A DNA stretch of 48,472 bases, from the IMG/VR virus record IMGVR_UViG_3300044512_004270, positions 1 through 48,472 of that record, one strand, 5' to 3'. Position 1 is the stretch's first letter; each line of letters opens with the position of its first letter. The DNA comes from a virus (lineage: Duplodnaviria > Caudoviricetes). A program made the translations under genes and the position numbers. Under the pieces are notes generated by a model. It searched no databases. It was given only the letters and a program-made list of their open reading frames with translations, and had not been told where the DNA came from. Positions 33,923 to 48,472 of this stretch are shown one piece after another.

Positions 33923-36574
33923 TTAGTACCTCACCAACTCTATTACAGCTACTCCTGAGGTACTAGAACTTGTATCATTAGTATTTTTTGTTACTGTTAT
34001 TCCTCCAAGAGCCGAAGACCTTCGTGTTATAGTAGGAGAGCTGTACAAGGCGCCGCTCCAAGTTACAAGAAATCCTGTTTCTGTTTTTTCGCTGCAGTCA
34101 AAATTAGTAAACATTGTTTTAGAAGATTGACTATTTGTATTTATACTATCACTAGCTAAAAAATTTGTTAAACGAGAAGTATCATCAATTATTGTTTGTG
34201 TACCTGTTGAATTTCGTATTTCAAGTCCATATGTATTAGCAGAGCCTCCTCCCGTACCTCCTCCCGTACCTCCACCGCCAGGATTAGAAGTATCTACTAC
34301 GGTTGTGCTACTTGAAGGAGACCCCGTAGAATCACCATTACTATCAGTGGCAGCTAGAGTTAGAGTTGCTGTTTTATTTCCATCTGCAACATTATCATTA
34401 ACAATATTAAAAACTACAGTAGCTGAGTTAGCCTGAATCGTTGCAGGCGAGGAATCATTAGTAGTATAATCTCCTGATTGCAGCCCGGATAATGTCCATG
34501 CAACAGTTGTTCCATTTGTTACACTTGTTGTTGTTATAGTAAATGTTAATGATTGCCCTTCATTTACAGAATTTGGGGAAGATACGCTGTAAGAAGTTGC
34601 GGGCTGTCTAAATAATCTTCTTACTTGAGATCCATCAACACTTACCCACACTGAATCAGCAGTGCTCGGGTCTCCTCCAGATGCCGGCAAGCGTCTTCCT
34701 TCAAATTCATATTCCCAAGTCTGCCCTGCTGCAGGAAGCTCAGAGTAGTTTCCTCCACCACTATTCATTTCGAGCACAAAGGTACCACTTGTTCCATTTC
34801 GGGTGTCTAGCCAACGATTTTGAGTGTCATATGAAACTACTCTATATTGATCTACTGAGCCCCCGTCAGAGTAAGGTATAAGTATATTATCGCCTGCAGA
34901 AGTTCCATAAGAGTTCGGAATTACATAAACTCCTGATACATTTGCACTTAATTGACTCCCATTTTTATCTGTAGGTAACCCAATAGTAATTGTATTGTCA
35001 GAGATTGGTAGATATGGAACAGCAATTGCACTATCAGTACGATCTTCGTAACCTGCTCCGCGGCGAGCCCAAAAATAGTAGGAAGTTCCTCGACTTACAC
35101 TCACTGTTGCACTTGTTTGCCACCCACTTGTAGGAACAGTTGTACTTGTAGTTACATTATATTCGAGTGTTCCATTTGTGCCGGAGCTTGTGAGTGCAAT
35201 CGTACAAGTAGTAGTTGCAGACTCAGTTCCTGCAAAAGTCTGCGTATTACTAACTACAGGCGCTGTAGGAGTTGCGGGAGGATCTGTAATTAAAAAAGTA
35301 TCTTCTGCATGTATGTAATTTAAAGAATTAAAGGTATTATTAATATACAATTTTACTGTTGCGGTTTCATTTCCTTCTGTAATACCGTCCGATGTAGGAG
35401 TCACGCCAAATGTACTTGTAAATATCTGTCCTGTAGAAGTCGCAAAGTCTCCGCCACTTGCTGTTGTAACTTGGTAATAAATTGGCCCCAATCCATTTGT
35501 GGCGCTATTCGAAAAGTTTCCTTGTGTGCCTTCTTGTATTGAAGTTGGTGCAGTTACAGAATAAGTAGGAAGAGTTGTAGAGCTTGTTCCGCTATAAACA
35601 AAAGTCGAACCGTCTATAGTTGCTCGTGCTTGACAAGTCCAAGTTGTTCCAACCCACTCTGTACCAACCCCTAAAGTTTGATTGGAAGTATAGCCAGTAG
35701 AGTATGATCCTTGACTGTTTTGCCCACCTCCCGTTGTACTCCATTGATAAGTAACTGTACCCGAAGTAGTGCCTGTTGGATTTGAATAAAGTCCAAACCC
35801 ATTTGGAATAATTGCTTTTGTAGCAGATACAGTGGGAGCTTGAGCTGCTGGAGCAGATACAGTGTAAGAGTACCCTAAATATTGACTATTCTGTCCATAA
35901 AGATTTGCTGCATAAATGTAAAAAGTACTCGAACCAGAACTAGGTAATCCATTTGTAATTGTAGCAGTAACACCATCTGTAGAAAAAGGCTTGCTCGTAG
36001 CTGTAGTCCAAGTTCTTGCTATATAACGAGAGTCTCCTCCAGCTCGTAAAGCATCTAAGTAACTACCATTGGCAATATTTGAGACGCTAAAAACATAGTA
36101 AATTGTACCTGCACCGCCTCCAGTTAAGCCATTCGCGTAAGATGTAGCACCTGAGGTTAAAGAAATACTGGTGCTGTTTAAGCTAATAGTAGTATCTAAG
36201 TTTACATTTACTTGGACTCGAGCTCTCCAACCTACAGAACTTCCTCCATTTGAAGGTTGACACCAAAAGCTTACAAGTCCATCAGTTGTTACACCAGAAA
36301 CAGTCGCATTAATTGTAGTATTACTACTTGAATAAGTAGTTCCAGGAAAGCTAAGTGTTCCTCCAGTTTGAGTAGTGCCATTCGGTGAAAAACCGTAGTT
36401 TGAAGTGCCAGCAGCTCCTGTTGTACTTCCACTACGAATGGGAATAATTACATTGTCACCATAATTTACTGTAACAGTTGTAAATCCTGCCGATCCATTT
36501 GTAGATGAAGGATAAGTTCCACTTAAAGTAGAAAGCGGCTGAAGTATTACAGTGCTGGTGGTTACATTCGCCAT
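33923..36574 (-). CDS. Putative receptor-binding/tail tip protein with Ig/Calx-beta-like domains
   Basis: Thr/Ser-rich beta domains (SVNEGQSLTFTITT..DNVADGNKTATLTL); C-terminal YGLEIRN motif; occupies the T5 pb5 position upstream of terS. Confidence 0.6.
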   Translation of the reverse strand: MANVTTSTVILQPLSTLSGTYPSSTNGSAGFTTVTVNYGDNVIIPIRSGSTTGAAGTSNYGFSPNGTTQTGGTLSFPGTTYSSSNTTINATVSGVTTDGLVSFWCQPSNGGSSVGWRARVQVNVNLDTTISLNSTSISLTSGATSYANGLTGGGAGTIYYVFSVSNIANGSYLDALRAGGDSRYIARTWTTATSKPFSTDGVTATITNGLPSSGSSTFYIYAANLYGQNSQYLGYSYTVSAPAAQAPTVSATKAIIPNGFGLYSNPTGTTSGTVTYQWSTTGGGQNSQGSYSTGYTSNQTLGVGTEWVGTTWTCQARATIDGSTFVYSGTSSTTLPTYSVTAPTSIQEGTQGNFSNSATNGLGPIYYQVTTASGGDFATSTGQIFTSTFGVTPTSDGITEGNETATVKLYINNTFNSLNYIHAEDTFLITDPPATPTAPVVSNTQTFAGTESATTTCTIALTSSGTNGTLEYNVTTSTTVPTSGWQTSATVSVSRGTSYYFWARRGAGYEDRTDSAIAVPYLPISDNTITIGLPTDKNGSQLSANVSGVYVIPNSYGTSAGDNILIPYSDGGSVDQYRVVSYDTQNRWLDTRNGTSGTFVLEMNSGGGNYSELPAAGQTWEYEFEGRRLPASGGDPSTADSVWVSVDGSQVRRLFRQPATSYSVSSPNSVNEGQSLTFTITTTSVTNGTTVAWTLSGLQSGDYTTNDSSPATIQANSATVVFNIVNDNVADGNKTATLTLAATDSNGDSTGSPSSSTTVVDTSNPGGGGTGGGTGGGSANTYGLEIRNSTGTQTIIDDTSRLTNFLASDSINTNSQSSKTMFTNFDCSEKTETGFLVTWSGALYSSPTITRRSSALGGITVTKNTNDTSSSTSGVAVIELVRY

Positions 36575-36578
36575 TTAA

Positions 36579-36875
36579 TTAAGCCCAAGGAAGCTCTTGG
36601 CCTTTTTCTGTAGAATCTGCAAGTTCATTTAGGTATACTTCTACTGCGGAACCTCGAGAAGCATCTATAGAAAGCCATAGATCTACTGCCCATTCTTTTG
36701 TTATATCGTCAAAAGCAACATAAGTATGCCCTTCTGAAGGTAAGGGTACTTGAAAGCAAGTGTAATGTACTGGCCCCGCTAAATGTTTTGCCCTTAAATG
36801 TATAAAATTTACGAGCTTTGGGTATTCAGGGTACTCATTCGTATACTCCAAGCTTTCGATAGTCCAAGTTATCAT
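36579..36875 (-). CDS. Hypothetical virion-associated protein
   Basis: ITWTIESLE..YVAFDDITKEW..LPW pattern. Confidence 0.65.
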   Translation of the reverse strand: MITWTIESLEYTNEYPEYPKLVNFIHLRAKHLAGPVHYTCFQVPLPSEGHTYVAFDDITKEWAVDLWLSIDASRGSAVEVYLNELADSTEKGQELPWA

Positions 36876-36876
36876 A

Positions 36877-37488
36877 TTATCCCCACTGCTCAGCCATAGC
36901 GAGAGCTATGCCCATATAAGTTAATGAACGTTCTTTTGCTCGGTTGGGAGTGTTTGGTGTGTTGTCCCGACCACAGTCATACTGATTACTCCATCGCTGG
37001 TACTTACGACCAGATGGAGACTGAATTATTCGTGGCGGAATCATGTCGGTAGGTTCAAGTTTAGCCAAGCCTCTCATCCATAGCCCTGTTTTCTTGCTAG
37101 CATCATCTCCAAACATATAGGGATGAATATATTGAGGCTTGGGCATAAACTTGAGTCGAGTGTTGATACAACCTACTGGATTCTCAATAGCCACTTTTGG
37201 TATTGGTGCCTTCCAAAGGGTCGTAATAAACTTTAGCGCATCTTCTGTTTTAAGTGCTCGCTCCGGTCTCTTTTTATTCCAGTGCAAGCCTGAAGATGCT
37301 AAATATGTGCAGGGAGGATGAGCAATCATCAAATCCCAGTTGTCGTTCAATATGTCCAGGACATTGCCCTGGTAGTGAGGACCTTCACTCTCTGTCGGTA
37401 ATATATCACACGACATAGCGAAATGCCCACGCGCAGTAAATGCGTCTCGTACTCTTCCCGAATATTCACAGGCCACCAATACTCTCAT
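36877..37488 (-). CDS. DNA cytosine methyltransferase (short phage type)
   Basis: VLVACEYSG, SCD, WDLMIAHPPCT (catalytic PC), IENP, ERSLTY.GIA.AMAEQW. Confidence 0.85.
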   Translation of the reverse strand: MRVLVACEYSGRVRDAFTARGHFAMSCDILPTESEGPHYQGNVLDILNDNWDLMIAHPPCTYLASSGLHWNKKRPERALKTEDALKFITTLWKAPIPKVAIENPVGCINTRLKFMPKPQYIHPYMFGDDASKKTGLWMRGLAKLEPTDMIPPRIIQSPSGRKYQRWSNQYDCGRDNTPNTPNRAKERSLTYMGIALAMAEQWG

Positions 37489-37513
37489 TTAATTCTCCAA
37501 ATTTTAAGAGTAT

Positions 37514-37543
37514 ATTATAGCCTCATAATACCTTGAATGTCAA
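37514..37543 (-). promoter_or_regulatory. sigma70 promoter
   Basis: Minus strand TTGACA-18nt-TATAAT. Confidence 0.8.
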
Positions 37544-37552
37544 GAAATATTT

Positions 37553-38020
37553 TTAATGTGCTATTATACTTATGAAGGCGATTCCGATACCTATGACTAC
37601 CGCCAGTCCTGCTGTAACTGCGGCTGCATCAATCCAGAAGGCTTTTCTTTCTGCTGCGGCTTTTGCTGCTTCGGCACGAGCAAGACGAATTGCTCGTCGC
37701 TCTTTCATCATATCTTCGTAAAATTCGATCTGTCCAGTATAGAGAAGAAACTCTCGAAGTTCTTTTTCGATTGCCATAATTTTATGACGAGCGGCAGTAA
37801 CTTCGAGAGCCTGTGCCTCTACGCTGCTAGAGTTGAATAGTTTTCCTACAAAAGAAGGAGAGCTTGCTTTCATATTGGCTTCGGAAAGCTGGTCTTTGGC
37901 GTCAAAAAACTTTCCAAAGTATCCAACCATGTCTTCAACTTCTTGACCAGTTTCCATCGCTTTTTTAATTGCACCATATGCAGAACTAGCTAAGGATATT
38001 GCCGTAGCTATCTCAATCAT
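37553..38020 (-). CDS. Hypothetical membrane-anchored helical protein
   Basis: ORF track; C-terminal TM segment; has its own promoter. Confidence 0.75.
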   Translation of the reverse strand: MIEIATAISLASSAYGAIKKAMETGQEVEDMVGYFGKFFDAKDQLSEANMKASSPSFVGKLFNSSSVEAQALEVTAARHKIMAIEKELREFLLYTGQIEFYEDMMKERRAIRLARAEAAKAAAERKAFWIDAAAVTAGLAVVIGIGIAFISIIAH

Positions 38021-38081
38021 ATTAAAAATCCTGACAAAAAGTCCTTGGCTAAATTTTCTCCTTGAGGGTATTTTAGGTTAA

Positions 38082-38110
38082 ATTATATCGAGCTGGAGGT
38101 ACAATGTCAA
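38082..38110 (-). promoter_or_regulatory. sigma70 promoter
   Basis: Minus strand TTGACA-17nt-TATAAT. Confidence 0.8.
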
Positions 38111-38131
38111 GAAATTTTTTTAAGTAGGATT

Positions 38132-38713
38132 CTATAATTTAACTTCTAAGTGAGTTCCATAGACAGTTTGACGATACTCATAACCTTCCATTGCTTTGCG
38201 CTCTATAAAAGGAGTAATTTTCCAGTTACGATATTTGTATGTAATTCCCAGCTGGTCGCGAGCATCAAACTTTGTACCAGAATCTTTAAAGCTCCAGCGG
38301 GGTTGCCACTTTGCATAGAGATAGAGAGGCCCGTATAAGTGAGGAGTATACTCGCCAATAAAACGGTATCGCCAGTGTGATTCCTTGTTGTTGAAATGGC
38401 GATATTCCATACGTCCTTCAAAAACTAAGTCTTTGTACGAGAAAAACTCTCCTGTAAATTTTATGCGATTTTCCTGAGTATTTACTAAGTCTGCATAACG
38501 GTACATGACTTCAATAGGGCCTATTCGATTTCCTATTTCGATATGCTTTCCACCTTCACGATGACGAAAAGTATATTCCCAGTCTCCTTTTTTTGCTTTG
38601 TAATTATGTTCGGATTCATCTGCTAAAAGTAGCATTGGAAATAAAGTTGCAATTAGTGTGATAACTATTAAGCTGATTGTCAATCCCGTTTTTTCATATC
38701 GTGAAAGTGCCAT
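38132..38713 (-). CDS. Putative outer-membrane beta-barrel porin (KdgM/NanC-like size)
   Basis: Start ATG 38713 with AAGGAG; signal peptide (..PMLLLA/DES); alternating amphipathic strands rich in Arg/Tyr/Trp; terminal strand YGTHLEVKL. Confidence 0.65.
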   Translation of the reverse strand: MALSRYEKTGLTISLIVITLIATLFPMLLLADESEHNYKAKKGDWEYTFRHREGGKHIEIGNRIGPIEVMYRYADLVNTQENRIKFTGEFFSYKDLVFEGRMEYRHFNNKESHWRYRFIGEYTPHLYGPLYLYAKWQPRWSFKDSGTKFDARDQLGITYKYRNWKITPFIERKAMEGYEYRQTVYGTHLEVKL

Positions 38714-38756
38714 AAGAATCTCCTTTTGCTTGTGGAAATTTTTTACCACAGAACAT

Positions 38757-38790
38757 ATTATATCACAAGATTGTTACAATTTTATGAAAA
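38757..38790 (-). promoter_or_regulatory. Pho-box-type promoter of porin gene
   Basis: Minus strand TTTTCAT-AAAA-TTGTAAC, then 10 nt, then TATAAT; no TTGACA at -35. Confidence 0.6.
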
Positions 38791-38852
38791 CACCGTTTAA
38801 AGTTTTTGCAATTTTTCCCAAGTGGTACGTGTGGGGGAGCGCGGCCGCGCTA

Positions 38853-38871
38853 AATGAGAATGAGTCTCATT
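38853..38871. promoter_or_regulatory. Fur-box-like inverted repeat
   Basis: AATGAGAATGAGTCTCATT versus AATGATAATnATTATCATT. Confidence 0.5.
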
Positions 38872-38999
38872 ACCGCCCCCCTATACAGCAAGCAGGCCTG
38901 GCGGGCAAGCATTTTTTGTGAATTATTTACAATTATTTTTCTGTACATCATGGCCCAGGATGGGTTACAATGCTTGCATTAAATAGAGAGGCGCTTGCC

Positions 39000-39104
39000 A
39001 TGACTGCACTGCAAATTTTTATCTTTCTCGGACTCGCGGCACCCGCGCTAATCGTTATTGCGTGGGGCATTTGGGATCAACGACCGAGCGCGCGAAAATG
39101 GTAA
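39000..39104 (+). CDS. 34-aa single-TM peptide
   Basis: Manual: MTALQIFIFLGLAAPALIVIAWGIWDQRPSARKW; GAGAGG RBS; upstream TGTACA-18-TACAAT. Confidence 0.65.
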   Translation: MTALQIFIFLGLAAPALIVIAWGIWDQRPSARKW

Positions 39105-39202
39105 TATTTCACAAAAAAATGTTTGGACTTTCTCGGCAAACTGTGAGACAATTCATTTCAAGGTTGAGCGATGGGCGCTCGACTTCAACAAAAGGAGGCT
39201 CT

Positions 39203-39514
39203 ATGCCTTACACTGAAAAGCAGGTCGCGGCACTGCAAAATGCCGCCAAGCAATACGGCACACTGAACGGCACTCTCGCCGGTCAGCTTGCTGACGAGCT
39301 TGGTCAATCCAAGCGTAGCGTGATCGCTAAAATCAAGTCGCTTGGGCTTGACTACGCGGTCGCCAAAAAGCCCATCAAGGGCACTCGCGCCACTAGCAAG
39401 GCCGACTATGTTGCGGCCATCGCTAAGGCGCTGGATGCTGACGCATCCACCCTTGACGGTTTAGAGAAAGCGACTGCGCTTTCTCTTTCTGGCTTGCTTG
39501 CGGCTATCCAATGA
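39203..39514 (+). CDS. T5 A2-like DNA-binding protein
   Basis: Start ATG 39203 after AAGGAGG; YTEKQ..LADELGQSKRSVIAKI..SKADYVAAIA..LDGLEKA follows the A2/D5 pattern; upstream TGGACT-17-GACAAT. Confidence 0.8.
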   Translation: MPYTEKQVAALQNAAKQYGTLNGTLAGQLADELGQSKRSVIAKIKSLGLDYAVAKKPIKGTRATSKADYVAAIAKALDADASTLDGLEKATALSLSGLLAAIQ

Positions 39515-39711
39515 TAGTCGCGCTTGCCGCTTGGATCGGAGCCGCTTGCATGATGGCGGCTCCTTTCATCATCGACACAAACGCAGGAAAATATCTTGCC
39601 ATTGTCGGACTGGCATTATTAACATTGCAAGCGATTGCAAATAAATGCTACAATCTGGTTTTACTTAACATTGTCGGCATTGGAGGATATTTCTATGCGC
39701 TTTATCTATGA
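39511..39711 (+). CDS. Small multi-TM membrane protein
   Basis: Hydrophobic 66 aa; ATGA overlap. Confidence 0.7.
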   Translation: MIVALAAWIGAACMMAAPFIIDTNAGKYLAIVGLALLTLQAIANKCYNLVLLNIVGIGGYFYALYL

Positions 39712-40165
39712 TTTAGATCACACTGTGATCGACTCTCGCCATCGTCAAGCTACCTTGCCAAATGGTGATCTTGACCTTGACCATTGGATCGAAAACAATA
39801 CGCCCGAAAAAATTGCGCGTGACAAATTGCTACCGCTTGCGGGGCACTGGATTCGACAGCGTGAGCGCGGCGCGGAGATCGTCGTCTGCACTGCCCGCGT
39901 TATGGGTGAGGCTGACTATCGCTTTTTAGCGGATCACGGGTTGGTTTGGGACGCTATGCTATCCCGCAAGGAAGGCGACCGCACCCCTGATGCGGAGCTA
40001 AAACTGCGAGCACTGCGAAACTATGCGGCTACAAAAACGCACTCATGGCGGCGGTTTTGTATGTTCAGCATAATGATGGATGACAATAAAAATGTCATAA
40101 ATTTGTTGACTCGCGCGGGTTTGCGGGTTTATAATGCACTGGAACTTAACGCGAGGGCGGCATGA
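39695..40165 (+). CDS. dmp: HAD-family deoxynucleoside-5'-monophosphatase (T5 dmp-like)
   Basis: Start 39695 after GGAGG; IYDLDHTVIDSRHR..NGDLDL..DKLLPL..VCTAR.M..DY..MMDDN. Confidence 0.8.
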   Translation: MRFIYDLDHTVIDSRHRQATLPNGDLDLDHWIENNTPEKIARDKLLPLAGHWIRQRERGAEIVVCTARVMGEADYRFLADHGLVWDAMLSRKEGDRTPDAELKLRALRNYAATKTHSWRRFCMFSIMMDDNKNVINLLTRAGLRVYNALELNARAA

Positions 40166-40674
40166 TGATTATTCGATCCACTGACTCAATTCCAGAGATC
40201 ACCCCGATTTCTGGCATGGCTTGGCACTACGTTTGGGAATTGCTCGAATTTGGTGTTTTCAAAAACGGCTACGCTCGTCACGCTTACAAGAATGGCAAGC
40301 ATGGCGGCATCGAGCGCGTTCGCTGGTGTTTGCAAGATTGCGAGACCGCTTTCGGTTACAATCGCGGCGAATTACACGCTCGCATCTGGCGTATGCGCCT
40401 CGGCGATAACGAAACCGTGTTAGCGGCAGAGCAATTCGTTCACTCACGCGAAGCGAATCGCGAAGACAAAGCGATGCTCTACGACAAGCGTTGGCTTGAC
40501 GTTGGCGGCAAAAGTGAATTCTACTTTTGCGACCAAAAAACTGCGCTGACTCGTTTTGCCAATTCGTACCGCAAGACCAATTTGGCAATCGGTGCGGCGG
40601 TGCGCGATCACAAACGCGCGAAGGGGATTCACGGTTGCCCCTATCCTGTAGATTATGCGGAGGTTTTAGCGTGA
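40162..40674 (+). CDS. Hypothetical protein, possibly T5orf172/GIY-YIG-like
   Basis: HYV..GVFKNG..R..LAAEQFVH..GGKSEFYF; promoter TTGACT-18-TATAAT at 40106-40135. Confidence 0.5.
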   Translation: MMIIRSTDSIPEITPISGMAWHYVWELLEFGVFKNGYARHAYKNGKHGGIERVRWCLQDCETAFGYNRGELHARIWRMRLGDNETVLAAEQFVHSREANREDKAMLYDKRWLDVGGKSEFYFCDQKTALTRFANSYRKTNLAIGAAVRDHKRAKGIHGCPYPVDYAEVLA

Positions 40675-41270
40675 AAAAACTGCAAGCGAAACTCAACCGG
40701 CTCGCGGAGAATCTCTCCGCTCCGGTTGCGGTAATCTTAGAAGGGCGCGATACTGCTGGAAAATCCTCGACCATTCGGGAATTGACTCACTACCTACCGC
40801 CCGACTTTTACAGCGTTTGCCTTTCTCACAAACCTAGCAAGGCGGCAATGAAAAGCTGGCTGGCGCACTGGCAAACCAAACTACCAAAGCAAAATCAAAT
40901 TGTGTTTTTTGATCGCTCTTGGTATTCTCGCGCAATGGTGCAACATCTCAACGGATGGTGCACTCCGAAGCAATATGATATTTTTATGCGCGACCATAAA
41001 AACTGGGAAGCCAGCCAGCCGGTGCGGTTGATTAAATTCTGGCTTTCAATTTCGGAAGATGAACAAAAACGCCGAATCGAATTGCGCAAAAATTCTCCGC
41101 TGACATATTGGAAATTTTCGCCCAACGATGAAAACGCGCTTTCACACTATGACAGAATGAGCATTTTAAAAGAGCGCGTTATTGATTCCGATTGGCATAC
41201 AATTAATTTCGAAAATAAACGCGCGGGAATTAAAAAATTGCTTGACACATTATGCCGCGAGCTGGCATAA
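40671..41270 (+). CDS. ppk2: Polyphosphate kinase 2
   Basis: GTG start after GCGGAGG; Walker A EGRDTAGKS, FFDRSWYSR, LIKFWLSIS.DEQ.RR..R..SPL..WKFSP.D. Confidence 0.92.
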   Translation: MKKLQAKLNRLAENLSAPVAVILEGRDTAGKSSTIRELTHYLPPDFYSVCLSHKPSKAAMKSWLAHWQTKLPKQNQIVFFDRSWYSRAMVQHLNGWCTPKQYDIFMRDHKNWEASQPVRLIKFWLSISEDEQKRRIELRKNSPLTYWKFSPNDENALSHYDRMSILKERVIDSDWHTINFENKRAGIKKLLDTLCRELA

Positions 41271-41316
41271 TGTTTTTATTGATTAGGGGATTGGCCCCAT
41301 TTAAGGAGAGCGAAAA

Positions 41317-41487
41317 ATGTCACACCATGTAAACGAAGCCAACGCTGAAGCCTGCTACGAAGAAGCCTACGAAGCGGCTTACGCTTTTTTTCCAGAAGCC
41401 GACTGGGACACTCCCGCTTTTGACGCGTGGGTTAACTGGAAAACTGACCAGCTTTTAGAGGAGCTTCCGCCTTGCCCTTACGGCTAG
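41317..41487 (+). CDS. 56-aa acidic protein
   Basis: Manual: MSHHVNEANAEACYEEAYEAAYAFFPEADWDTPAFDAWVNWKTDQLLEELPPCPYG; AAGGAG RBS; promoter TTGACA-18-CATAAT at 41242-41271. Confidence 0.75.
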   Translation: MSHHVNEANAEACYEEAYEAAYAFFPEADWDTPAFDAWVNWKTDQLLEELPPCPYG

Positions 41488-41527
41488 GGCAAGCCGGGCC
41501 ACGACCCTACCTGCCTTCGGCCAGGAC

Positions 41528-42040
41528 CAAGCGACCAAGCGGTCGCTTGACAAATTTGGCGCGCCCGCGCCAGTAGTAGTGCGACGACGATTTGTTTTTG
41601 GTGGTACCTGCGCCATTATAAGTGCGCGACCGAAGAATGTCAAGTCTTTTTTGCGGGTGCGGACCAAATTATTTTAATTTGTTTTGGTCTTGTAAAAAGC
41701 GCGGCGCCGATTATAGTACAGTACCGATGCGATGTCAAGTACTTTTTGCACAATTGCCCAAAATAATTCGACGCGCAAGTCTCTTAGACCCCGTGCCCAC
41801 CCTGGTATTATATCATGACCCAGGCGGGGTTGTCAAGGGTTTTTTCGATTCGGCCTGGAATTTGCGCCAAGTTATTCGACCCCGAGGCGGCGCCGATTAT
41901 ACAGTAGTATTGCGACGATGTCAAGTACTTTTTGGGGTAATTCTGCATAATTTTTGATATTGTAGTCTGTGCGGGGTTGTGGTAAGATAAATCACGAAAA
42001 TTTTGGACAATTTGACAAAATAATTCTTGACACGATGAGG
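41528..42040 (-). repeat. Gene-free repeat/promoter array (injection-stop-signal-like)
   Basis: Four minus-strand TTGACA-17/18-TATAAT units (41615-41643, 41710-41738, 41807-41836, 41896-41924); GCGGCGCCGATTATA...CGATGTCAAGTACTTTTTG occurs twice; hairpins at 41528-41549 and 41557-41572. Confidence 0.75.
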
Positions 42041-42205
42041 TCGTATGCGGCCCCGCGGAATTCGTTTGCGTTAAAGTGCCGAGTATTCCGGAAAAGTTAT
42101 AAGTACCCCCGTGATGCACGAAGTTTAAAATACCATCTTAAAAATATTACTTGACTTTGGGGGTATTTTGGGGGTATAATATATAAGTATGAAATGGAGG
42201 ATTTT

Positions 42206-42859
42206 ATGAAACTATACGAACAAAAAGACTTAAAAACAAAAGAGCTAGTAAAAAAATACCCAAGTTATCGAGAGTATAAGACTAATGGAGCTAAAGAAGG
42301 AGGCTGGGGTATGACTTCTATTGAGCGAAGGTATGGTAGTTGGAATGCTTATAAGCAGAGTATAGGGGAAGAAATAAAAGTAGCAAACTCTGAGATTAGA
42401 GAATATACTGTTGAAGAATTAATAGAGGAGGTTAAGAAATACAAAATATTAGATACAATGAGAGAAGCTAAAGCAAACGGTATATCAACTCCCAGCGAAG
42501 CACAAATAAGAAAGGCTTTTGGAAATTGGAGAAACGCAAGAGTTGCTGCAGGCTTACCTTGTATAGCTACTACTTTCGATGAAGAAGTAGAAACACTTGT
42601 ATACTTAATATGGTTTATAGAAGATGATATATTTAAAGTAGGAATAACCCAAAAAACCCTACAAGAAAGAGGAAGGGGCTGGCCTGAGTATTATGTAGTG
42701 GATTGTATTAGTACTTCTGCTCAGGCTGCTTTATCTTTGGAGAAAAGAGTATTGGAAAAATTTTACAGCACTAAAATTTATTATGACAAGATAGAAGGAA
42801 ACGGCGCAACAGAATGTTTTAAGTATAACGACATTCCCTCCTTAGTTTCTCTTGACTAA
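42206..42859 (+). CDS. Putative homing endonuclease (FG.W repeats + GIY-YIG/T5orf172-like domain)
   Basis: RRYGSWNAY and KAFGNWRNARVAAGL repeats; VYLI..FKVGIT..R..LEK..G.TECF; AT-rich; promoter TTGACT-18-TATAAT at 42151-42180. Confidence 0.7.
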   Translation: MKLYEQKDLKTKELVKKYPSYREYKTNGAKEGGWGMTSIERRYGSWNAYKQSIGEEIKVANSEIREYTVEELIEEVKKYKILDTMREAKANGISTPSEAQIRKAFGNWRNARVAAGLPCIATTFDEEVETLVYLIWFIEDDIFKVGITQKTLQERGRGWPEYYVVDCISTSAQAALSLEKRVLEKFYSTKIYYDKIEGNGATECFKYNDIPSLVSLD

Positions 42860-42936
42860 CCTGGCGACCAATCCGGAAAAAGTTCTTGACAACTTGCCCA
42901 AGGTTTAGTATAATATGTACCTAAATCGGAGAACCT

Positions 42937-43377
42937 ATGGATTACAAAGTAAGAATCAAAGCCAAAGCTACTTGGACAAAAGCTAAACGCCAATTGTTCT
43001 GGGACGCGCTTCACTTCGCTCACATCTACTTGGATTTTTGCAAGATGAAAGGTATTGGTAGGGTTGATTTTCATCTTACCGGAGACCCTTATGCCCCAGG
43101 CTCGTGCATTGATGCTGACGATAAGTATATCGTACATATTAGTGGTGCTCAAACGGAAGATGAAATAGTAGAAACACTATTTCACGAACTAACTCACGTT
43201 AAGCAATACGAAGATGGTCATTTACAAGACATCGACGAAGATGTAGTATATTGGCTAGGTAATTACTACCGAGGTGACTTTCAGGATACCTTTAGTAAAA
43301 CATACTGGAACGCGCCTTGGGAAGTAGAAGCTAGGGATACCGCAGAATACCTTACAAATAAATACTACCAAAGTTAA
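42937..43377 (+). CDS. Putative Zn metallopeptidase
   Basis: TLFHELTHVKQY..YWNAPWEVEA; promoter TTGACA-17-TATAAT at 42886-42914. Confidence 0.75.
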   Translation: MDYKVRIKAKATWTKAKRQLFWDALHFAHIYLDFCKMKGIGRVDFHLTGDPYAPGSCIDADDKYIVHISGAQTEDEIVETLFHELTHVKQYEDGHLQDIDEDVVYWLGNYYRGDFQDTFSKTYWNAPWEVEARDTAEYLTNKYYQS

Positions 43378-43459
43378 AAAAGTTGTTGACAAGATGCTAA
43401 AACTGTTCTATAATATATTTTCAAAAGTTGGGAAACAAACATTTTCGGGAGAAAAATTT

Positions 43460-43780
43460 ATGTCTGATACTACTAAAGTTGTAAACTACACTGACGAAAT
43501 GGTTGAAGCTATCCGTTCTGAGTACGAAGCTGCTCCTGTTCGCGCTACTGTAGACGCCCTTGCTGCTCGTTTCGGCAAGACCCCTCGCTCTATCATCGCC
43601 AAGTTGTCTACTCTCGGTATCTACCAAGCTCCGGCTCGTGTTACCAAGACTGGCAAGCCTGTCGTCAAGAAGGAAGCTCTGGTCGCTGAGATCGTTGCTA
43701 CCATCGGTGTTGAGCTGCCTTCTCTGGTCAAGGCTAACAAGCAAGACCTCGAAGCACTTGTTTCAGCTCTTAAGGGCTGA
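43460..43780 (+). CDS. A2/D5-like DNA-binding protein (paralog 2)
   Basis: NYTDEM..TVDALAARFGKTPRSIIAKLS.LGIY..KTGKPVVKKEALV; promoter at 43386-43414; high-expression codon bias. Confidence 0.8.
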   Translation: MSDTTKVVNYTDEMVEAIRSEYEAAPVRATVDALAARFGKTPRSIIAKLSTLGIYQAPARVTKTGKPVVKKEALVAEIVATIGVELPSLVKANKQDLEALVSALKG

Positions 43781-43864
43781 TTCATTCCCCAGGAGGTAGC
43801 CCATCTGCCTCCTTTTTCTTTTGTAAGTGCATTTGCTAAGTGTGCTTTCAAAAGGAGACTAACC

Positions 43865-44128
43865 ATGAAAGATAATTTTGTTGCTAAAAACGCACACAAG
43901 TTCAACCGTGCGAACGTCATGGTTGACCGCAAAAAAGCTGCTAAAAAGTCTGGGTACAAGCAAGACCAGGCCTGGCATTCTTTAGGTGAGTATGAACATA
44001 GTGTCATACTTGAATATTACGAAGCAAGTAATTGGGCTGGCTTACAGGCATACTGTACTTGTGTACTGCATCTAACCCCCGGTCAGTACCAGAGCTTGCT
44101 TCAGAGCTTACATGATGGAGTATCATAA
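43865..44128 (+). CDS. Hypothetical protein
   Basis: AAGGAG RBS; NFVAKNAHKFNRA..DRKK motif. Confidence 0.75.
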   Translation: MKDNFVAKNAHKFNRANVMVDRKKAAKKSGYKQDQAWHSLGEYEHSVILEYYEASNWAGLQAYCTCVLHLTPGQYQSLLQSLHDGVS

Positions 44129-44334
44129 TGGATGAGATGAAAATAGAAGGTGTTCAACTGACTTTCGCCCATAATGGCGTGATTGTTGAATTTGATGGTA
44201 GAAATGCTACTGGGGATTGGTGTAAACGCAAAGAAGTATTCCCCACCTTTATCAGTGCACTAGATCGTGCACAGATTGTATGGCAGTCAAGATTCGACGG
44301 AAGTGCTTTTCAGGATATTGACGTAGACCAATAA
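44128..44334 (+). CDS. Hypothetical protein
   Basis: TAATG coupling; GGAG RBS. Confidence 0.7.
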   Translation: MDEMKIEGVQLTFAHNGVIVEFDGRNATGDWCKRKEVFPTFISALDRAQIVWQSRFDGSAFQDIDVDQ

Positions 44335-44345
44335 AAAAATAATTC

Positions 44346-44374
44346 TTGACTTTTGTTGGTTGTTTTAGTATAAT
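44346..44374 (+). promoter_or_regulatory. sigma70 promoter of putative large ncRNA
   Basis: TTGACT-17nt-TATAAT with an A-tract upstream. Confidence 0.85.
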
Positions 44375-44380
44375 ATTTAT

Positions 44381-44999
44381 TCAAATTGAGGGAAGCCACG
44401 GACGCAAGCAACAGCCACCGTTGCATACTAGCGATAAGGCAGTAAAGATCCCAGTGAAAGTTCGATGCCGATCTGGAGCCCTCACCCTAATTTTTGTAAG
44501 CCGTCATGCTTACAACCTAACACTCGTTGACCCACACCGCGACGGTGGTGATTGTGGCATCGGTGTAGTGCTAATGCGGGAAGGCAAAGCACTTTAAAAA
44601 GTACCTTCCTAGTCTTTGTGCCACTTACAAGCACTTCCCTTAGCTGAGGGACGAATATCAGTTTCCTCCTACGCCGAGAGGTAAGTCGGTGTCCAATGCG
44701 ACTTGGATTGTTCGCTCCAGTTTTGTTGAACAGCAATTCTTTACTGGATTCAAAAAAGAACAGGCGGCCAGTGTAAGTTCCATGGGTTACGCTGGGGTAG
44801 GAAGAGGAAGGATCCTACCATTTAACTATAGGAGGAAGTCCTGTAAGTAGCAAATCGCGATAGAGCGTCGAAAACTCTCATGGCTACTTTAAGGCACTAT
44901 AGGGTCTACCTACTTAGACCCGCAAAGGAAGTAGGGGGTTGGTAAACCAATAAAAACTACCATCAAAATCCCTGCACAGCAATGTGTGGGGATTTTTTT
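44381..44999 (+). ncRNA. Putative large structured non-coding RNA (about 600 nt, family unassigned)
   Basis: Bounded by promoter and terminator; no RBS-led ORF; more than 12 helices including long-range and pseudoknot pairings. Confidence 0.75.
44965..44999 (+). terminator. Rho-independent terminator
   Basis: AAAATCCCTGCACA-GCAA-TGTGTGGGGATTTTTTT. Confidence 0.88.
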
Positions 45000-45118
45000 A
45001 TGCGTGTAGAAAATAGTTCTTGACTTTTTTCTCAAAGTATGAGAGAATACACAAGATAGTAAATTTAGGGAGAAAATTTTATGCTGAAATACGCAATGTA
45101 CCCAACAGGAGACCTACC

Positions 45119-45469
45119 ATGGGACAAGTAATTGATTTTACCTCTCGAAAGAGAACTCCTAAAGACCCAGAGACTCGTGCTATTATGGATAGGTTGCACA
45201 TGCTCCAGGAGACTTTGCAAGATATATGGAGCCATATAGACGATGGGTATGCTAACCTAAATCTAATGGAAGAGGAGTGTGGTAAAGTAGAGAAGTTCTA
45301 TGACGAAGTAGTCCTGGAACTTGCAAAACGAATCGGGGGTGAGAATATCCCAGTGGAGTTTTTAAACTATTCCAAAAATGTAGTACCTGAGCTACAATCG
45401 GACGGCACCTATACAATGGTTATAAAGGAGCCAGAACTAGAAATTATTTTTACACCGGATGAGGACTAA
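45119..45469 (+). CDS. Hypothetical protein
   Basis: ATG 45119 after AGGAGA (MGQVIDF...); promoter TTGACT-17-GAGAAT at 45020-45048. Confidence 0.75.
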   Translation: MGQVIDFTSRKRTPKDPETRAIMDRLHMLQETLQDIWSHIDDGYANLNLMEEECGKVEKFYDEVVLELAKRIGGENIPVEFLNYSKNVVPELQSDGTYTMVIKEPELEIIFTPDED

Positions 45470-45777
45470 TGAATTACACAAAAGATCAAACTGAGTACAT
45501 GATTGAAAAATATAAAACCAACCCTTCTAGGGATACAGTAGAGGAACTAGCGAATGAATTCAGTAAGAGTGTCAAATCAGTTATCGGCAAACTCTCACGC
45601 GAAGGCGTATATCGCCGCGAGGTATATAAAACAAAGACTGGCGAGAACCCTGTTACAAAAGTGGAGATCGTTGCAAATATTGCTGATTCGCTTGGACTCG
45701 AAAGTGACTCTCTGGCGGGTCTCGAGAAAGCTCCAAAGTCAACTCTTAAAACAATCGAGAGAGTACTATCAGAGTGA
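45469..45777 (+). CDS. A2/D5-like DNA-binding protein (paralog 3)
   Basis: NYTKDQT..TVEELANEFSKSVKSVIGKLSREGVY..KTGENPVTKVEIV..LAGLEKAPK. Confidence 0.8.
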   Translation: MNYTKDQTEYMIEKYKTNPSRDTVEELANEFSKSVKSVIGKLSREGVYRREVYKTKTGENPVTKVEIVANIADSLGLESDSLAGLEKAPKSTLKTIERVLSE

Positions 45778-46039
45778 GAAGGTGGTGGCGAATCTGGGCA
45801 AGAAGTTTAGGAGAGAAAGTTACAGAGTCGTCAACTGAAAGTGATGTAGTAGCAGTTATACGGACTTTCTGGTGGCTACTTCATGTGGTCACCTGTTTTT
45901 TCATTATAATTCATAACGGTACTAACCTCGGCTATTGGTAAACCTTTTCAGGGGTCTCAACGGGGTTATAGTTATAGCAACACTAGAAAAAATTCTACCA
46001 AAATCATCAGCCCTAACAAGAAATTTCTTACAATTGTAA

Positions 46040-46424
46040 AAAACCGTTTTCAAGTACGTTTTTACAAAAAGCGGTTTATCGCGAATTGGCGTAAGTTGAC
46101 CGTGTTATTAAAAGACGAATTTTTAGTACAAGTGGAGGAAATCGAAGGCGGGATCGTTAACGTGTTATTTGATTAACGGGGTCATTAACGATTGGTCGGA
46201 ATTTACTTTGACATGAAGCAAAGTAGAATGGGATTATCGAAAGATTCAATGCAACAACAAGCTATTCTTGTGGGTACGCACTCTCTCTCGCTTACGCTTC
46301 GAGAGTGCTTATCGCACAAAAAGCTTTATGCACAGTATCTTTCTTCAGGTTAAGTAGAATCTCGATTAGACCCTATTGCTTAACAATTAGTATATATTTT
46401 ATCACACATTTTGGCATAACACAA
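46040..46424. other. Structured intergenic region (possible origin/primer RNA or sRNA)
   Basis: Long imperfect hairpin 46240-46342, further hairpins, minus-strand promoter TTGTGT-17-TAAAAT at 46396-46424. Confidence 0.45.
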
Positions 46425-46578
46425 GTACTATTTTTCTATGGTATCATTTATATCCTGGCCTGAGCGAGTTTTAAGGTACGTAAAAAAGTTTTAAAGTATA
46501 GAGTAGGTATGTAAAAAAACTTCTTGACATTTCGTTTTTTGTTTGCTATAATATAAGTTAAGAAATGGGAGGTACCAT

Positions 46579-46803
46579 ATGTTGGTTCGAAGAACAAGCA
46601 CTTTAACCGGGGTTGAGCGGGTGCGTGAAATGGACGTAACCCAGGAAGATTTGAATCGCTGGGCTGCCGGTGAGTTAATACAAAATGTATTTCCTCATCT
46701 GTCCGTTGACGACCGCGAGTTTATCATGACTGGTATAACCGGAGAAGAGTGGGAAGAATACTGGGAAGAAGCAAATAGGGATGAATTTGTATATGAGCTT
46801 TGA
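46579..46803 (+). CDS. Hypothetical protein
   Basis: GGGAGG RBS; LIQNVFPHLS.DDREFIMTGIT.EEW; promoter TTGACA-17-TATAAT at 46524-46552. Confidence 0.8.
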   Translation: MLVRRTSTLTGVERVREMDVTQEDLNRWAAGELIQNVFPHLSVDDREFIMTGITGEEWEEYWEEANRDEFVYEL

Positions 46804-47021
46804 TTTATTTGTATTATTTTTTAGCGGTGGAGCAGTTATTGTATGGTGGTGGGCTCTTGGACTCTAACTGCTATGTAGTGTGGTGCGAATACAAGAGTAA
46901 GATTTCTTTTATAAACACTTGGCTCGATAGCTACGATGCTCTTCGAGAGTGTTCAAGTTTAAATTCACGAGACAATAGTGGTGCTCACTACTATGTCACA
47001 TTTATGGGAGTAAGATTCTAA
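46800..47021 (+). CDS. Hypothetical protein (start uncertain)
   Basis: ORF track; fits the operon. Confidence 0.5.
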   Translation: MIYLYYFLAVEQLLYGGGLLDSNCYVVWCEYKSKISFINTWLDSYDALRECSSLNSRDNSGAHYYVTFMGVRF

Positions 47022-47230
47022 TGGCAAAGACAATGGTTTATGATCCGCAGCTGACTCGCAAGTTCAAGATGAATGCTGCCATGAAAGGCAAGAAGGTAAC
47101 TTCACACGGAGCATTTCGTGCAAAGCGAAAGCCCAACTCACCTCGAGTACAAGCTGCAGAGCGAGTAAAGGCTGCTTCACAGTTTGGTAAGAGCGCAGAG
47201 TTTAAGCAAGAAATTTACGGAATCGAATGA
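47021..47230 (+). CDS. Small basic hypothetical protein
   Basis: GGGAG RBS; TAATG coupling. Confidence 0.75.
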   Translation: MAKTMVYDPQLTRKFKMNAAMKGKKVTSHGAFRAKRKPNSPRVQAAERVKAASQFGKSAEFKQEIYGIE

Positions 47231-47370
47231 TTCGAGAAGTAAGAGAGCCGAAAAAAACAAGCTATATTGTCTACGATCATCGTGGGTATATTGTAGTTAT
47301 AACAACAGAGAGAGGAGTTGCGGAAATTTATGAAAGGCGTGTATCACTTAGTAATGCTGGAAAACGCTAA
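47227..47370 (+). CDS. 47-aa hypothetical protein
   Basis: Manual: MIREVREPKKTSYIVYDHRGYIVVITTERGVAEIYERR...; ATGA overlap. Confidence 0.6.
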   Translation: MIREVREPKKTSYIVYDHRGYIVVITTERGVAEIYERRVSLSNAGKR

Positions 47371-47566
47371 ATCTGACTTTAAATATTTTCTTGGAATATT
47401 TAGTACGGGTTCAAAGGCGGAAGCAGCAGCGGAGTATGAAATGGTAAGACGACGCACAGAGAACCTACCTGGGGAATGCACTCCTAAGATTTTGAAAGTA
47501 GAAGTAGACAAAATGACATCATCTATAAGTGTAGCAGCTTTAGAGGAATTGAAAAACCGGCGCTAG
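47330..47566 (+). CDS. Hypothetical protein
   Basis: YFLGIFSTGSKAEAA motif. Confidence 0.7.
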   Translation: MKGVYHLVMLENAKSDFKYFLGIFSTGSKAEAAAEYEMVRRRTENLPGECTPKILKVEVDKMTSSISVAALEELKNRR

Positions 47567-47602
47567 GCCGGTTTTTTCTTATAAGGGGCGTAATGCCCCT
47601 TT
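47552..47602. terminator. Terminators between convergent operons
   Basis: AAAAACCGGC-GCTAG-GCCGGTTTTTT and AAGGGGCG-TAA-TGCCCCTT hairpins. Confidence 0.8.
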
Positions 47603-47771
47603 ACAGTATATCTTCGATAGAAATTACAGTAGACTTTATAACATCTACAAGAGTAAAACCGGAGCGTACAACATATCTTTCAGACTGAGGATTATTCAAT
47701 TCTGGAGGTAGTGTTCCAACTACTGTTAGTACCTTTCCTGTTTTGTAGTGTTTAAAAGTAATTTTCTTCAT
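47601..47771 (-). CDS. 56-aa hypothetical protein
   Basis: Manual: MKKITFKHYKTGKVLTVVGTLPPELNNPQSERYVVRSGFTLVDVIKSTVISIEDIL; ATGA overlap. Confidence 0.7.
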   Translation of the reverse strand: MKKITFKHYKTGKVLTVVGTLPPELNNPQSERYVVRSGFTLVDVIKSTVISIEDIL

Positions 47772-48157
47772 TCGCCAAGAATATGACTAAAATCAGGAGC
47801 AAAAAAGTTTTCGCTCTTCATTACTTTACCATCTTCTCTATAAATTGCTTTACCATCGGGCCCTAGCTTACTCATATTGCTTTCGTGCACTTCTAAAAAG
47901 CACTCATCCAAATCAATACCAAAAGCATGACCTGCTCCATATACAACATAGAGTAGATCTGTAAGAGCATCTGCAACTTCGTGCATATCTTTATTTTCAA
48001 TTGCTTCTTCCAGTTCTTCATATTCTTCTCGTATAAGTTCGAGGCGTAATTCACGGGTGGAGAAGTCAGGCCAAATTGGTTCACAATGAACATCTTGGCC
48101 AAATCCCTCCATAAAATCACCAACTAATTCAAAGTTACTTACGGCCTGTTTTGACAT
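47768..48157 (-). CDS. MazG-like nucleotide pyrophosphohydrolase (PRA-PH-like)
   Basis: LIREEYEEL..EVADALTDLLYV.YG..EVHESNMSK..YREDGKVMK. Confidence 0.9.
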   Translation of the reverse strand: MSKQAVSNFELVGDFMEGFGQDVHCEPIWPDFSTRELRLELIREEYEELEEAIENKDMHEVADALTDLLYVVYGAGHAFGIDLDECFLEVHESNMSKLGPDGKAIYREDGKVMKSENFFAPDFSHILGE

Positions 48158-48344
48158 ATTTACTGCGCTCCTTTTGTGTGCGTCGCTGCTCTCTTTTAAT
48201 TGCAGCCTTTTTTGCTCTGTGTCGAACTATTGAAGGTTTTTCGAAGTATTCACGTTCGCGATACTCGAAGACAACTTCACTACACTTCTTTTTAAAAACA
48301 CGAAGTGCTTTCTCGACGTTGTTGTTTCTTACTTTAATTTTCAT
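48135..48344 (-). CDS. rpsU: Ribosomal protein bS21
   Basis: VRNNNVEKALRVFKKK..EYREREYFEKPS.VR..AKKAA. Confidence 0.88.
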   Translation of the reverse strand: MKIKVRNNNVEKALRVFKKKCSEVVFEYREREYFEKPSIVRHRAKKAAIKREQRRTQKERSKYVKTGRK

Positions 48345-48472
48345 CTTTCCCTTTTAAAATACCAACCTCTTTTCTTCAGGTAGGCAACTTGTTTTCGAAT
48401 TGAATTCGGAGTACGGCCAGGTAATACTTGAAGCAAGTGCTCCATACTCAATACATAATAATAATCACGAAG
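48341..48472 (-). CDS. Partial HTH-like protein (5' end outside window)
   Basis: Manual: ..LRDYYYVLSMEHLLQVLPGRTPNSIRKQVAYLKKRGWYFKRER*. Confidence 0.6.
   Translation of the reverse strand, partial: LRDYYYVLSMEHLLQVLPGRTPNSIRKQVAYLKKRGWYFKRER

Follow-up and report, generated by a model that had tools for sequence, protein, structure and literature searches.

The few large ornate RNAs known from phages, such as ROOL and GOLLD, have fixed folds. ROOL is phage-associated and non-coding, averages 581 nt and was described with several pseudoknots, few invariant bases and intermolecular kissing loops (PMC5737381; 10.1101/2024.12.08.627333). GOLLD, often longer than 800 nt, has variable parts and conserved ones, including a 3' domain that is conserved in every member, and is located close to tRNA islands. 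Symmetric kissing loops join the half-shells of GOLLD and of ROOL, the 5' region of GOLLD being variable, and switching between palindromes in GOLLD L21a and in L9.3 of OLE, a dimerising bacterial RNA of ~580 nt with protein partners and a fixed architecture, was used as the signature of intermolecular bridges seen by cryo-EM (Kretsch et al., 10.1101/2024.12.08.627333). Among engineered RNAs, synthetic ssRNA nanostars consist of consecutive hairpins with 6-nt palindromic kissing loops and appended aptamers, identical loops being carried on at least three arms, the lowest valency used there for condensation (Stewart 2024, PMC11289419). Compact RNA modules also specify cages, oligomers and filaments in manA, EGFOA and ARRPOF, which are Rfam families and single motifs, not shuffled arrays (Ren 2026, 10.64898/2026.07.01.735769; PMC12990946).

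Here we describe a large modular phage RNA that is real and uncatalogued and is kin in kind to these self-associating phage RNAs. It lies in a virus record of 48,472 bases, ~50% complete (the window), from a marine T5-like phage whose terminase is 48-50% identical to T5-like Demerecviridae terminases. Its other products include a protease-capsid fusion, a polynucleotide kinase, PPK2, ribosomal protein S21 and three paralogous DNA-binding proteins of the D5-like kind (39062-39514, 43394-43780 and 45469-45777), among whose genes the RNA slot sits. The S21 homologue (48135-48344, minus strand, phrog_21469) occurs in this T5-like phage with sigma-70 promoters; its closest genome match, 51% identical, comes from an archaeal MAG, where it sits on a 2.5-kb contig that may be phage DNA binned wrongly, and the bS21 search gave no usable host lineage. 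At 619 nt the RNA is close to the ~580 nt of ROOL.

An earlier note on this DNA had described a promoter, a strong terminator and no RBS-led ORF between them. All three were found (Table 1), the terminator being seen by folding and absent from the list of a simple terminator scan. Inside the element no ATG-led ORF of at least 40 aa lies on the plus strand, and four chance ORFs start with TTG or GTG or sit on the minus strand. The -10 hexamer stands just 5' of module A in nearly all main-family matches, a TTGAC -35 being visible in the sequences displayed, and a hairpin with U-run closes all 63 complete homologues, as part of their definition. In 53 of 57 homologues another promoter stands at most 70 nt beyond the terminator, so the RNA unit does not serve as a leader for the gene behind it. 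In most families, module-A RNAs adjoin a D5-like gene.

Table 1. Features of the RNA element and its surroundings. Fractions of 61 give presence among complete elements; swap-test triplets compare native with swapped stem partners (native better/worse/tie) and ignore relatedness.
Feature	Coordinates	Strand	Basis or occurrence
68-aa ORF upstream of the RNA, without known family	44128..44334	+	ORF list, family search
Sigma-70-type promoter TTGACT-17-TATAAT	44346..44374	+	11/12 consensus positions matched
ncRNA gene, ~619 nt	44381..44999	+	5' end inferred from promoter
Module A: portable three-way junction, 98 nt	44387..44484	+	Covariation, recurrence
Module B: optional hairpin, NGUCAU loop	44493..44516	+	20/61
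Module C: bulged helix with inner hairpin; loop here of GAC type	44515..44569	+	Loop comparison
Module D: probable H-type pseudoknot, A-rich loop 3	44567..44612	+	52/61; other modules replace D elsewhere
Module E: hairpin and probable pseudoknot	44614..44662	+	Swap test 33/5/14
Module F: probable small H-type pseudoknot; homologues use F2, R instead	44664..44692	+	Swap test 24/3/4
Module G: optional	44693..44715	+	12 matches
Module H: probable H-type pseudoknot, U-rich loop 1, A-rich loop 3	44716..44762	+	60/61
Module I: hairpin, loop palindrome CCATGG at 44780-44785	44768..44795	+	Predicted intermolecular kissing loop
Module J: hairpin, purine-rich loop with two GG pairs	44796..44819	+	Swap test 22/0/2
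Module K: optional long bulged stem, palindromic bulge TCGCGA at 44855-44860	44825..44901	+	39/61
Module L: optional, probable H-type pseudoknot	44902..44935	+	18/61; swap test 5/0/0
Module M: optional, probable compact pseudoknot, A-rich loop	44936..44962	+	8/61; few variants
Intrinsic terminator	44968..44999	+	14-bp hairpin and U-run
Separate promoter serving downstream genes	45020..45048	+	Promoter scan
~116-aa ORF downstream of the RNA, without known family	45119..45469	+	ORF list, family search
D5-like DNA-binding protein (phrog_1725, phrog_323)	45469..45777	+	Family match

Homologues were collected from IMG/VR and JGI assemblies. A search with the downstream gene returned four loci with the element, and conserved-pattern searches gave 16, 22, 15, 38 and 15 viral matches as well as 93 metagenome matches. 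After duplicates and chance matches (L039, L050, L052, L079, L168, L197, L245, L248, L250, L253, L254 and L256-L260) had been taken out, and with partial elements excluded from whole-element counts, 63 distinct complete main-family homologues remained, this copy included, of 437-705 nt (median 558) and 53-100% identity (mean 70%). They vary as non-coding sequence does: of 77 short indels, 69 have lengths that three does not divide and so break the frame, and the longest ATG ORF per homologue has a median of 36 codons. The element is single-copy in its own record, and module A gave one match in each of three related genomes at least 90% complete. Model R1 had no match in three cultured Demerecviridae (T5-like phages), in 15 loci with the D5-like gene and no element (L006-L020), in six chance pattern matches or in 3 cell genomes; it also gave 0 matches in 151 genomes sampled from one phylum, a search run without a positive control. 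The strict pattern gave 0 matches against GTDB, and blastn against 50,697 phage records returned only 3 short chance matches. The segment 44381-44999 folds more stably than its shuffles (z = -3.7 and -4.1 in two computations), with z of -4.1 to +1.3 for 11 representatives.

The element is also present in RNA libraries. Of 24 sequencing runs holding the stretch, 18 are on record as RNA, which may amount to about three campaigns (labels: salt marsh, estuary or freshwater), and 5 hold at least half the words; X19-X24 are unlabelled, two of them with a small share. Four metatranscriptome assemblies, chosen for holding the element, were compared over 36000-48472, bins without coverage not being taken as absence. 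The depth in X5 was 2628 and 958 in two element bins versus 16 and 3 beside them, and in X1 it was ~400 over the element versus 4 in the next downstream bin and 256 in the upstream bin, the latter lifted by a contig (44047-44848) that runs through the promoter. The sole contig of X3 (44533-44974) lies on the element, as do two of the three contigs of X11. These data indicate that RNA of the element is present in the libraries, the contigs being silent on its level, strand and ends. The element is a conserved non-coding transcription unit, and 44381-44999 almost certainly encodes a functional ncRNA.

Comparison with catalogued RNAs bore out the earlier description of a stand-alone, structured, non-coding RNA outside the catalogue. 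Against Rfam the window gave nothing at gathering score and chance matches only at E up to 10, and scans of 18 homologous loci at E up to 5 showed no ROOL or GOLLD match; all Rfam scans together returned terminator-like chance matches and one tRNA, nothing else. OLE, manA, EGFOA and ARRPOF were likewise unmatched. RNase P RNA, group I and II introns, catalogued small ribozymes and riboswitches were rejected, there being no Rfam match, a promoter and terminator of the element's own and no interrupted gene. A tmRNA was also rejected (0 ARAGORN and 0 Rfam calls in the window). As a separate observation, ARAGORN called permuted tmRNAs in related phages, at 757-1210 of L024, 6939-7392 of L026 and L030 and 5586-6039 of L027, as well as in L176, L184, L196, L235, L240, L242 and L246, with tags such as ANDDVYTLAA, ANDEVYDLAIAA and GNDDIYDMAA. 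We found no published description of this RNA in literature searched at abstract level, mostly outside subscription papers. Fremin 2023 (PMC10690425) reported 8,495 candidate structured RNA motifs of 29-151 nt from IMG/VR; a comparison with its tables gave no motif or contig match, and single modules may be among its candidates, the whole RNA being too long for that set.

The neighbourhood was also examined for tRNA genes, frequent neighbours of ROOL and GOLLD. None was found in the window, in 20 main-family or neighbouring loci, in G001 (100 of 101 kb) or in G002, and the other module-A families had one tRNA in 4 of 22 loci. T5 itself carries tRNA genes, unlike G001 and G002 (L225-L234), two near-complete T5-like genomes without one.

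Alignments of the homologues revealed a common slot order, A-(B or S)-C-D-E-(F or F2)(G or R)-H-I-J-[K][O][L][M or N][P]-terminator, whose occupants vary or are missing. Complete main-family elements fall into 34 module strings, some of which differ merely by misses, short modules being under-detected. Modules of 25-100 nt are gained or lost throughout, with variation greatest in the 3' part; N occurs in 10 of the 61 complete elements, O in 23, P in 14 and S in 7. Phages have thus exchanged, gained and lost modules. No module of the B-M set was found outside the element in the loci scanned, save one weak module-I match, and separate scans found neither L nor K outside module-A elements.

These alignments allowed the structure first proposed, a single ornate fold closed by long-range helices, to be examined. 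All 18 strand pairs listed for it sit where they had been placed, 17 as exact complements and CCAGTGTAA/TTACGCTGG with one G-U. The helix 44663/44829, said to close a multibranch domain, did not hold up as structure: its 3' strand is missing in 26 of 63 complete homologues, 9 bp are possible in 8 of the 37 others (4 all Watson-Crick), and native partners paired better than swapped ones in 0 comparisons, worse in 5 and equally in 1. Its 5' strand pairs locally in a pseudoknot, where CCTC/GAGG becomes CGTC/GACG in L150. The tertiary candidate CGATGCC/GGCATCG (44463/44556) is possible in just 3 of 57 homologues. The pairing TCCAGT/ACTGGA survived as stem 1 of an H-type pseudoknot, as judged by alignment and by stem 2, and not as the loop-loop contact proposed; GGAAGG/CCTTCC and TCCCT/AGGGA read as pseudoknot stems. 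The H-type pseudoknot CCTACT/AGTAGG was upheld by its swap test. Homologue tests found no conserved long-range helix, and we conclude with high confidence that the RNA is made of locally folding modules in a row, which can be missing or exchanged, and not of one long-range fold.

Among the modules, D, E, F, H, L and M (about six) are well suggested, though not proven, to be H-type pseudoknots; their stems come in as many as 17 complementary variants, and in D, E, F, H and L the native partners outdid swapped ones. Module H has 17 stem-2 variants (swap test 102/7/17) and would form a triple helix, and module D has 9 (30/0/2). The bulge of K is TTGCAA in other copies and its UCGA loop is invariant; the arrangement of I and J is seen again in further families of RNAs with module A. 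The loop of module C is palindromic (TGTACA or TGGCCA) in most homologues without B. Module B occurs with a GAC-type C loop in 16 elements and with a palindromic one in 3, and elements without B have a palindromic C loop in 28 cases and a GAC-type loop in 5; this co-occurrence suggests a kiss between the B and C loops, for which covariation support is absent (0/3/13). Outside module A, tree-aware tests gave most pairs one compensatory event, within the null, and significant pairs numbered 0 in HIJ, 0 in D and 1 in K. The G-test with a tree null is too conservative for clade-structured modules, so event counts and swap tests were added. Covariation exceeds the null in module A; in the other modules it is consistent with the folds and not above the null.

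The variability of the string bears on whether the RNA could be a closed nanocage of fixed stoichiometry like ROOL and GOLLD, with A, H, I and J forming the shell and optional modules hanging off it. The sizes are alike, the half-shells of both known RNAs are joined by kissing loops, GOLLD has a variable 5' region, and almost every main-family element contains modules A and H. Against a cage stand the missing Rfam match and conserved long-range helix, the insertion and loss of modules throughout, the movement of module A to unrelated RNAs and to either end, and a number of palindromic loops that differs between elements, and we consider it quite unlikely. The RNA differs from ROOL in its local optional modules, and from GOLLD in that its conserved unit is a 98-nt module moving between unrelated RNAs.

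Covariation established the predicted fold of this module A, with a new loop-loop pseudoknot. Its helices are P1 (44387-92/44479-84), P2 (44395-97/44438-40), P2b (44403-05/44431-33) and P3 (44451-54/44473-76), to which are added a pseudoknot of 2-3 bp (44399-44401/44468-44470) and an invariant 9-nt junction strand. Across 36 diverse sequences 31 columns are invariant, many of them unpaired. Five pairs score above every one of 60 tree-based nulls, four of the five being canonical in at least 85%, and six have at least 3 compensatory events (null mean 0.03), among them the tertiary pair 44400-44469 (G-C 69, A-U 5), which joins the P2 internal loop with L3. With the pseudoknot included, 95.8% of cells are paired, versus 26-50% for slid controls, and in 13 of 19 pairs both partners have changed. 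Neither the portable module with its covarying tertiary pair nor the palindromic loops described below had been noticed in the earlier reading.

The 114 elements carrying module A fall into 9 families unrelated outside it. Relaxed scans of this phage group placed the module at the 5' end in L169, L171, L176, L177 and L242, at the 3' end in L175, L187 and L196, and directly 3' of a D5-like gene in L108 and L241; internal positions also occur. In L244 it lies 6-8 nt upstream of a tRNA-Met, and in L196 upstream of an ORF and a permuted tmRNA. The hairpin ribozyme, TPP, cobalamin, T-box T-loops and K-turns were considered as likenesses for module A, and the pistol ribozyme for module D; none had an Rfam match, and no such relation is claimed. 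Around module A, L243 and L244 contain long ORF-poor RNA arrays with further pseudoknot-like modules, and in L243 a stretch upstream of A, which ARAGORN does not call, finishes with a tRNA-like T-arm and CCA. A second short motif (AATTGGTAT..TTCCTATG) was seen by eye in L171, L184, L189, L201, L196 and L243, members of unrelated module-A families.

The conservation of module A raises the possibility that it is the functional core, an aptamer- or ribozyme-like element whose task would be to bind a tRNA or small molecule, or else to cleave or shield the transcript, the other pseudoknots being nuclease-resistant stabilisers or released small RNAs. Junctions closed by loop-loop contacts are known from purine and ZTP riboswitch aptamers. 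The invariant unpaired columns, the covarying pseudoknot, the retention in nine families and the positions beside the tRNA-Met of L244 and the ORF and tmRNA of L196 would fit such a role. Module A alone, however, had no Rfam match at E up to 10 and no cellular copy in the searches above, and it lacks an expression platform, downstream genes having their own promoter; the contigs 44533-44974 and 44047-44848 argue for uncut molecules, and the palindromes are left unexplained. As the whole account this is unlikely, and it can hold together with the explanation that we prefer, given below.

The compensatory and G-U-tolerant changes, tertiary pairs included, also bear on the proposal that the element is not a functional RNA, being a DNA-level element (an origin or sites for proteins) or several cassettes, selfish or neutral, stacked together. 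Its place among DNA-binding-protein paralogues, its mosaic nature and its absence from the three cultured T5-like phages are in keeping with that proposal, which covariation has already largely refuted and which is further opposed by the element's own terminator, its presence in RNA libraries and the confinement of modules B-M to the element. A search of 5 records, of which 3 are 90% complete or more, found no reverse transcriptase (PF00078), with the control positive in 3 of 14 genomes, and a retron, DGR or DRT ncRNA was rejected on the same search. We regard this DNA-level or selfish reading as very improbable.

Several loops of the RNA are palindromic and switch between palindromes. The apex of module I is CTGCAG, CCATGG, TCATGA, TTGCAA, TCGCGA, TCGCGG, ACGCGA or CCGCGA, and an automated count found a central 4-nt palindrome (TGCA, CATG or CGCG) in 63 of 67, the four misses carrying GTTGCAAC beside the apex chosen by the fold. 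The bulge of module K is palindromic in 42 of 42 (TCGCGA 18, TTGCAA 24), one module C subtype alternates TGTACA with TGGCCA, and the L169 family alternates TTATAA, TTGCAA and TTGTAA. A 4-nt palindrome was present in 0/87, 0/56, 0/61 and 1/57 control loops, and the RNA as a whole shows no excess of six-mer palindromes (7.75 versus 8.34). Invariant palindromes (the inner UCGA of K, 42/42, and CATG of B, 24/27) were left out of the evidence. In three other lineages a palindrome precedes the J-like loop; it is absent in L241, L242 and L243.

Adjacent bases switch together in I (AT/GC), in C (TA/GC) and in the L169 family (AT/GC/GT), and because of this the switching does not reflect intramolecular pairing. 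The palindromes of I and K vary independently, which ruled out an intramolecular I-K kiss; each therefore probably pairs with its own counterpart in another molecule. About five or six independent switches were counted (~2 in I, one each in K and C and 1-2 in the L169 family), and some of the predicted kisses would be no longer than 4 bp. The number of switching palindromes varies between elements: there are two in this copy and three in others such as L025. Taken together, the comparative data suggest that loops I and K, and C in most relatives without B, pair between molecules, and that copies of the RNA probably associate with one another. As in ROOL, GOLLD and OLE, the loops switch between palindromes with adjacent covariation, and by this analogy the RNA plausibly works like them in self-pairing.

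The explanation that we favour, and to which we give about an even chance, is that of an ncRNA of about a dozen modules whose copies pair with themselves through palindromic loops and likely serve as a multivalent scaffold or decoy in infection. The RNA would be transcribed from its own promoter to its own terminator, as the conserved signals and the assemblies indicate, and each module would fold locally, which phylogeny-aware covariation supports for A and, with statistical weakness, elsewhere. Phages swap, add and drop modules, and the palindromic loops would kiss between molecules, so that two-loop copies such as this one form dimers or chains and three-loop copies such as L025 possibly form meshes. 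The modules might then bind host or phage factors, assembly raising avidity or stability. Among the three roles first proposed for the RNA, that of scaffold gains indirect support.

The purpose of such an assembly could be to titrate host factors, as suggested by the position among T5-like early-type promoters and by the many invariant unpaired bases in module A; we hold this decoy purpose only tentatively, at somewhat less than an even chance. Phage RNAs that counter host defence include pseudo-ToxI and RNA anti-CRISPRs. A T5 tRNA counters the host defence PARIS (PMC11464382). Differently from such decoys, the searches made here turned up neither a tRNA nor a repeat array nor any host look-alike, and a decoy role is only what we infer.

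The GGA and GGAGG motifs are the consensus for binding by CsrA/RsmA and the anti-Shine-Dalgarno, and the loops of CsrB/RsmZ carry many GGA. A rival reading, with exposed GGA and GGAGG acting as a sponge for CsrA/RsmA or the ribosomal anti-Shine-Dalgarno, would be in line with the purine-rich J loop, with an AGGAG linker before K or P, with the counts per element of GGAGG (1.41 versus 0.64 in shuffles) and AGGAG (1.63 versus 0.71), and with the S21 protein of the phage. The enrichment is weak for GGA (11.3 versus 8.7, family versus shuffles; 14 versus 9.8 in this copy) and for ANGGA (2.9 versus 2.6), the ANGGA of module A is taken up in its pseudoknot, and most of the RNA would be left unexplained, which makes this sponge improbable.

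A bolder form of the preferred scaffold or decoy, which we think has a low probability, is a natural RNA nanostar, in which multivalent RNAs, built by marine T5-like phages through shuffling of a common module kit, condense or mesh via orthogonal palindromic kissing loops and concentrate module A as an orphan aptamer for a host immune signal or tRNA-like target. The RNA resembles the synthetic nanostars in its consecutive hairpins and palindromic loops and differs from them in being natural, with two to three different palindromes per molecule. If true, such a nanostar would be the RNA equivalent of the sponge proteins of phages and a novel type of anti-defence organelle.

The family supplies natural deletion and swap variants of every module, which are lacking for ROOL and GOLLD, and its 98-nt core with a covarying tertiary pair is common to nine unrelated RNAs; self-pairing of the loops can be tested by a few point changes. 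If the RNA assembles, RNA-only quaternary structure extends to mix-and-match architectures like those of engineered RNA condensates, and if module A binds a ligand or cleaves, abundant marine viruses would have yielded a novel class of aptamer or ribozyme.

Further observations were made elsewhere in the window. After the D5-like gene lies a second ORF-poor stretch of ~740 bases (45839-46578), and L006, L009-L012 and L015-L018 have ~480-570 ORF-free bases at a similar position, possibly a conserved origin or another RNA. In the segment 41488-42190 a repeat of ~60 bases occurs twice in imperfect form (near 41700-41760 and 41885-41945), together with several words that are TTGACA-like or resemble inverted promoters. 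A polyphosphate kinase 2 gene (40527-41270; PF03976, E 3e-39) lies near a polynucleotide-kinase-like gene (39635-40165). An HNH-repeat/T5orf172 endonuclease gene with its own promoter occupies 42194-42859, and an X1 contig skips 42072-42856, indicating a relative without this gene, as expected for a mobile gene.
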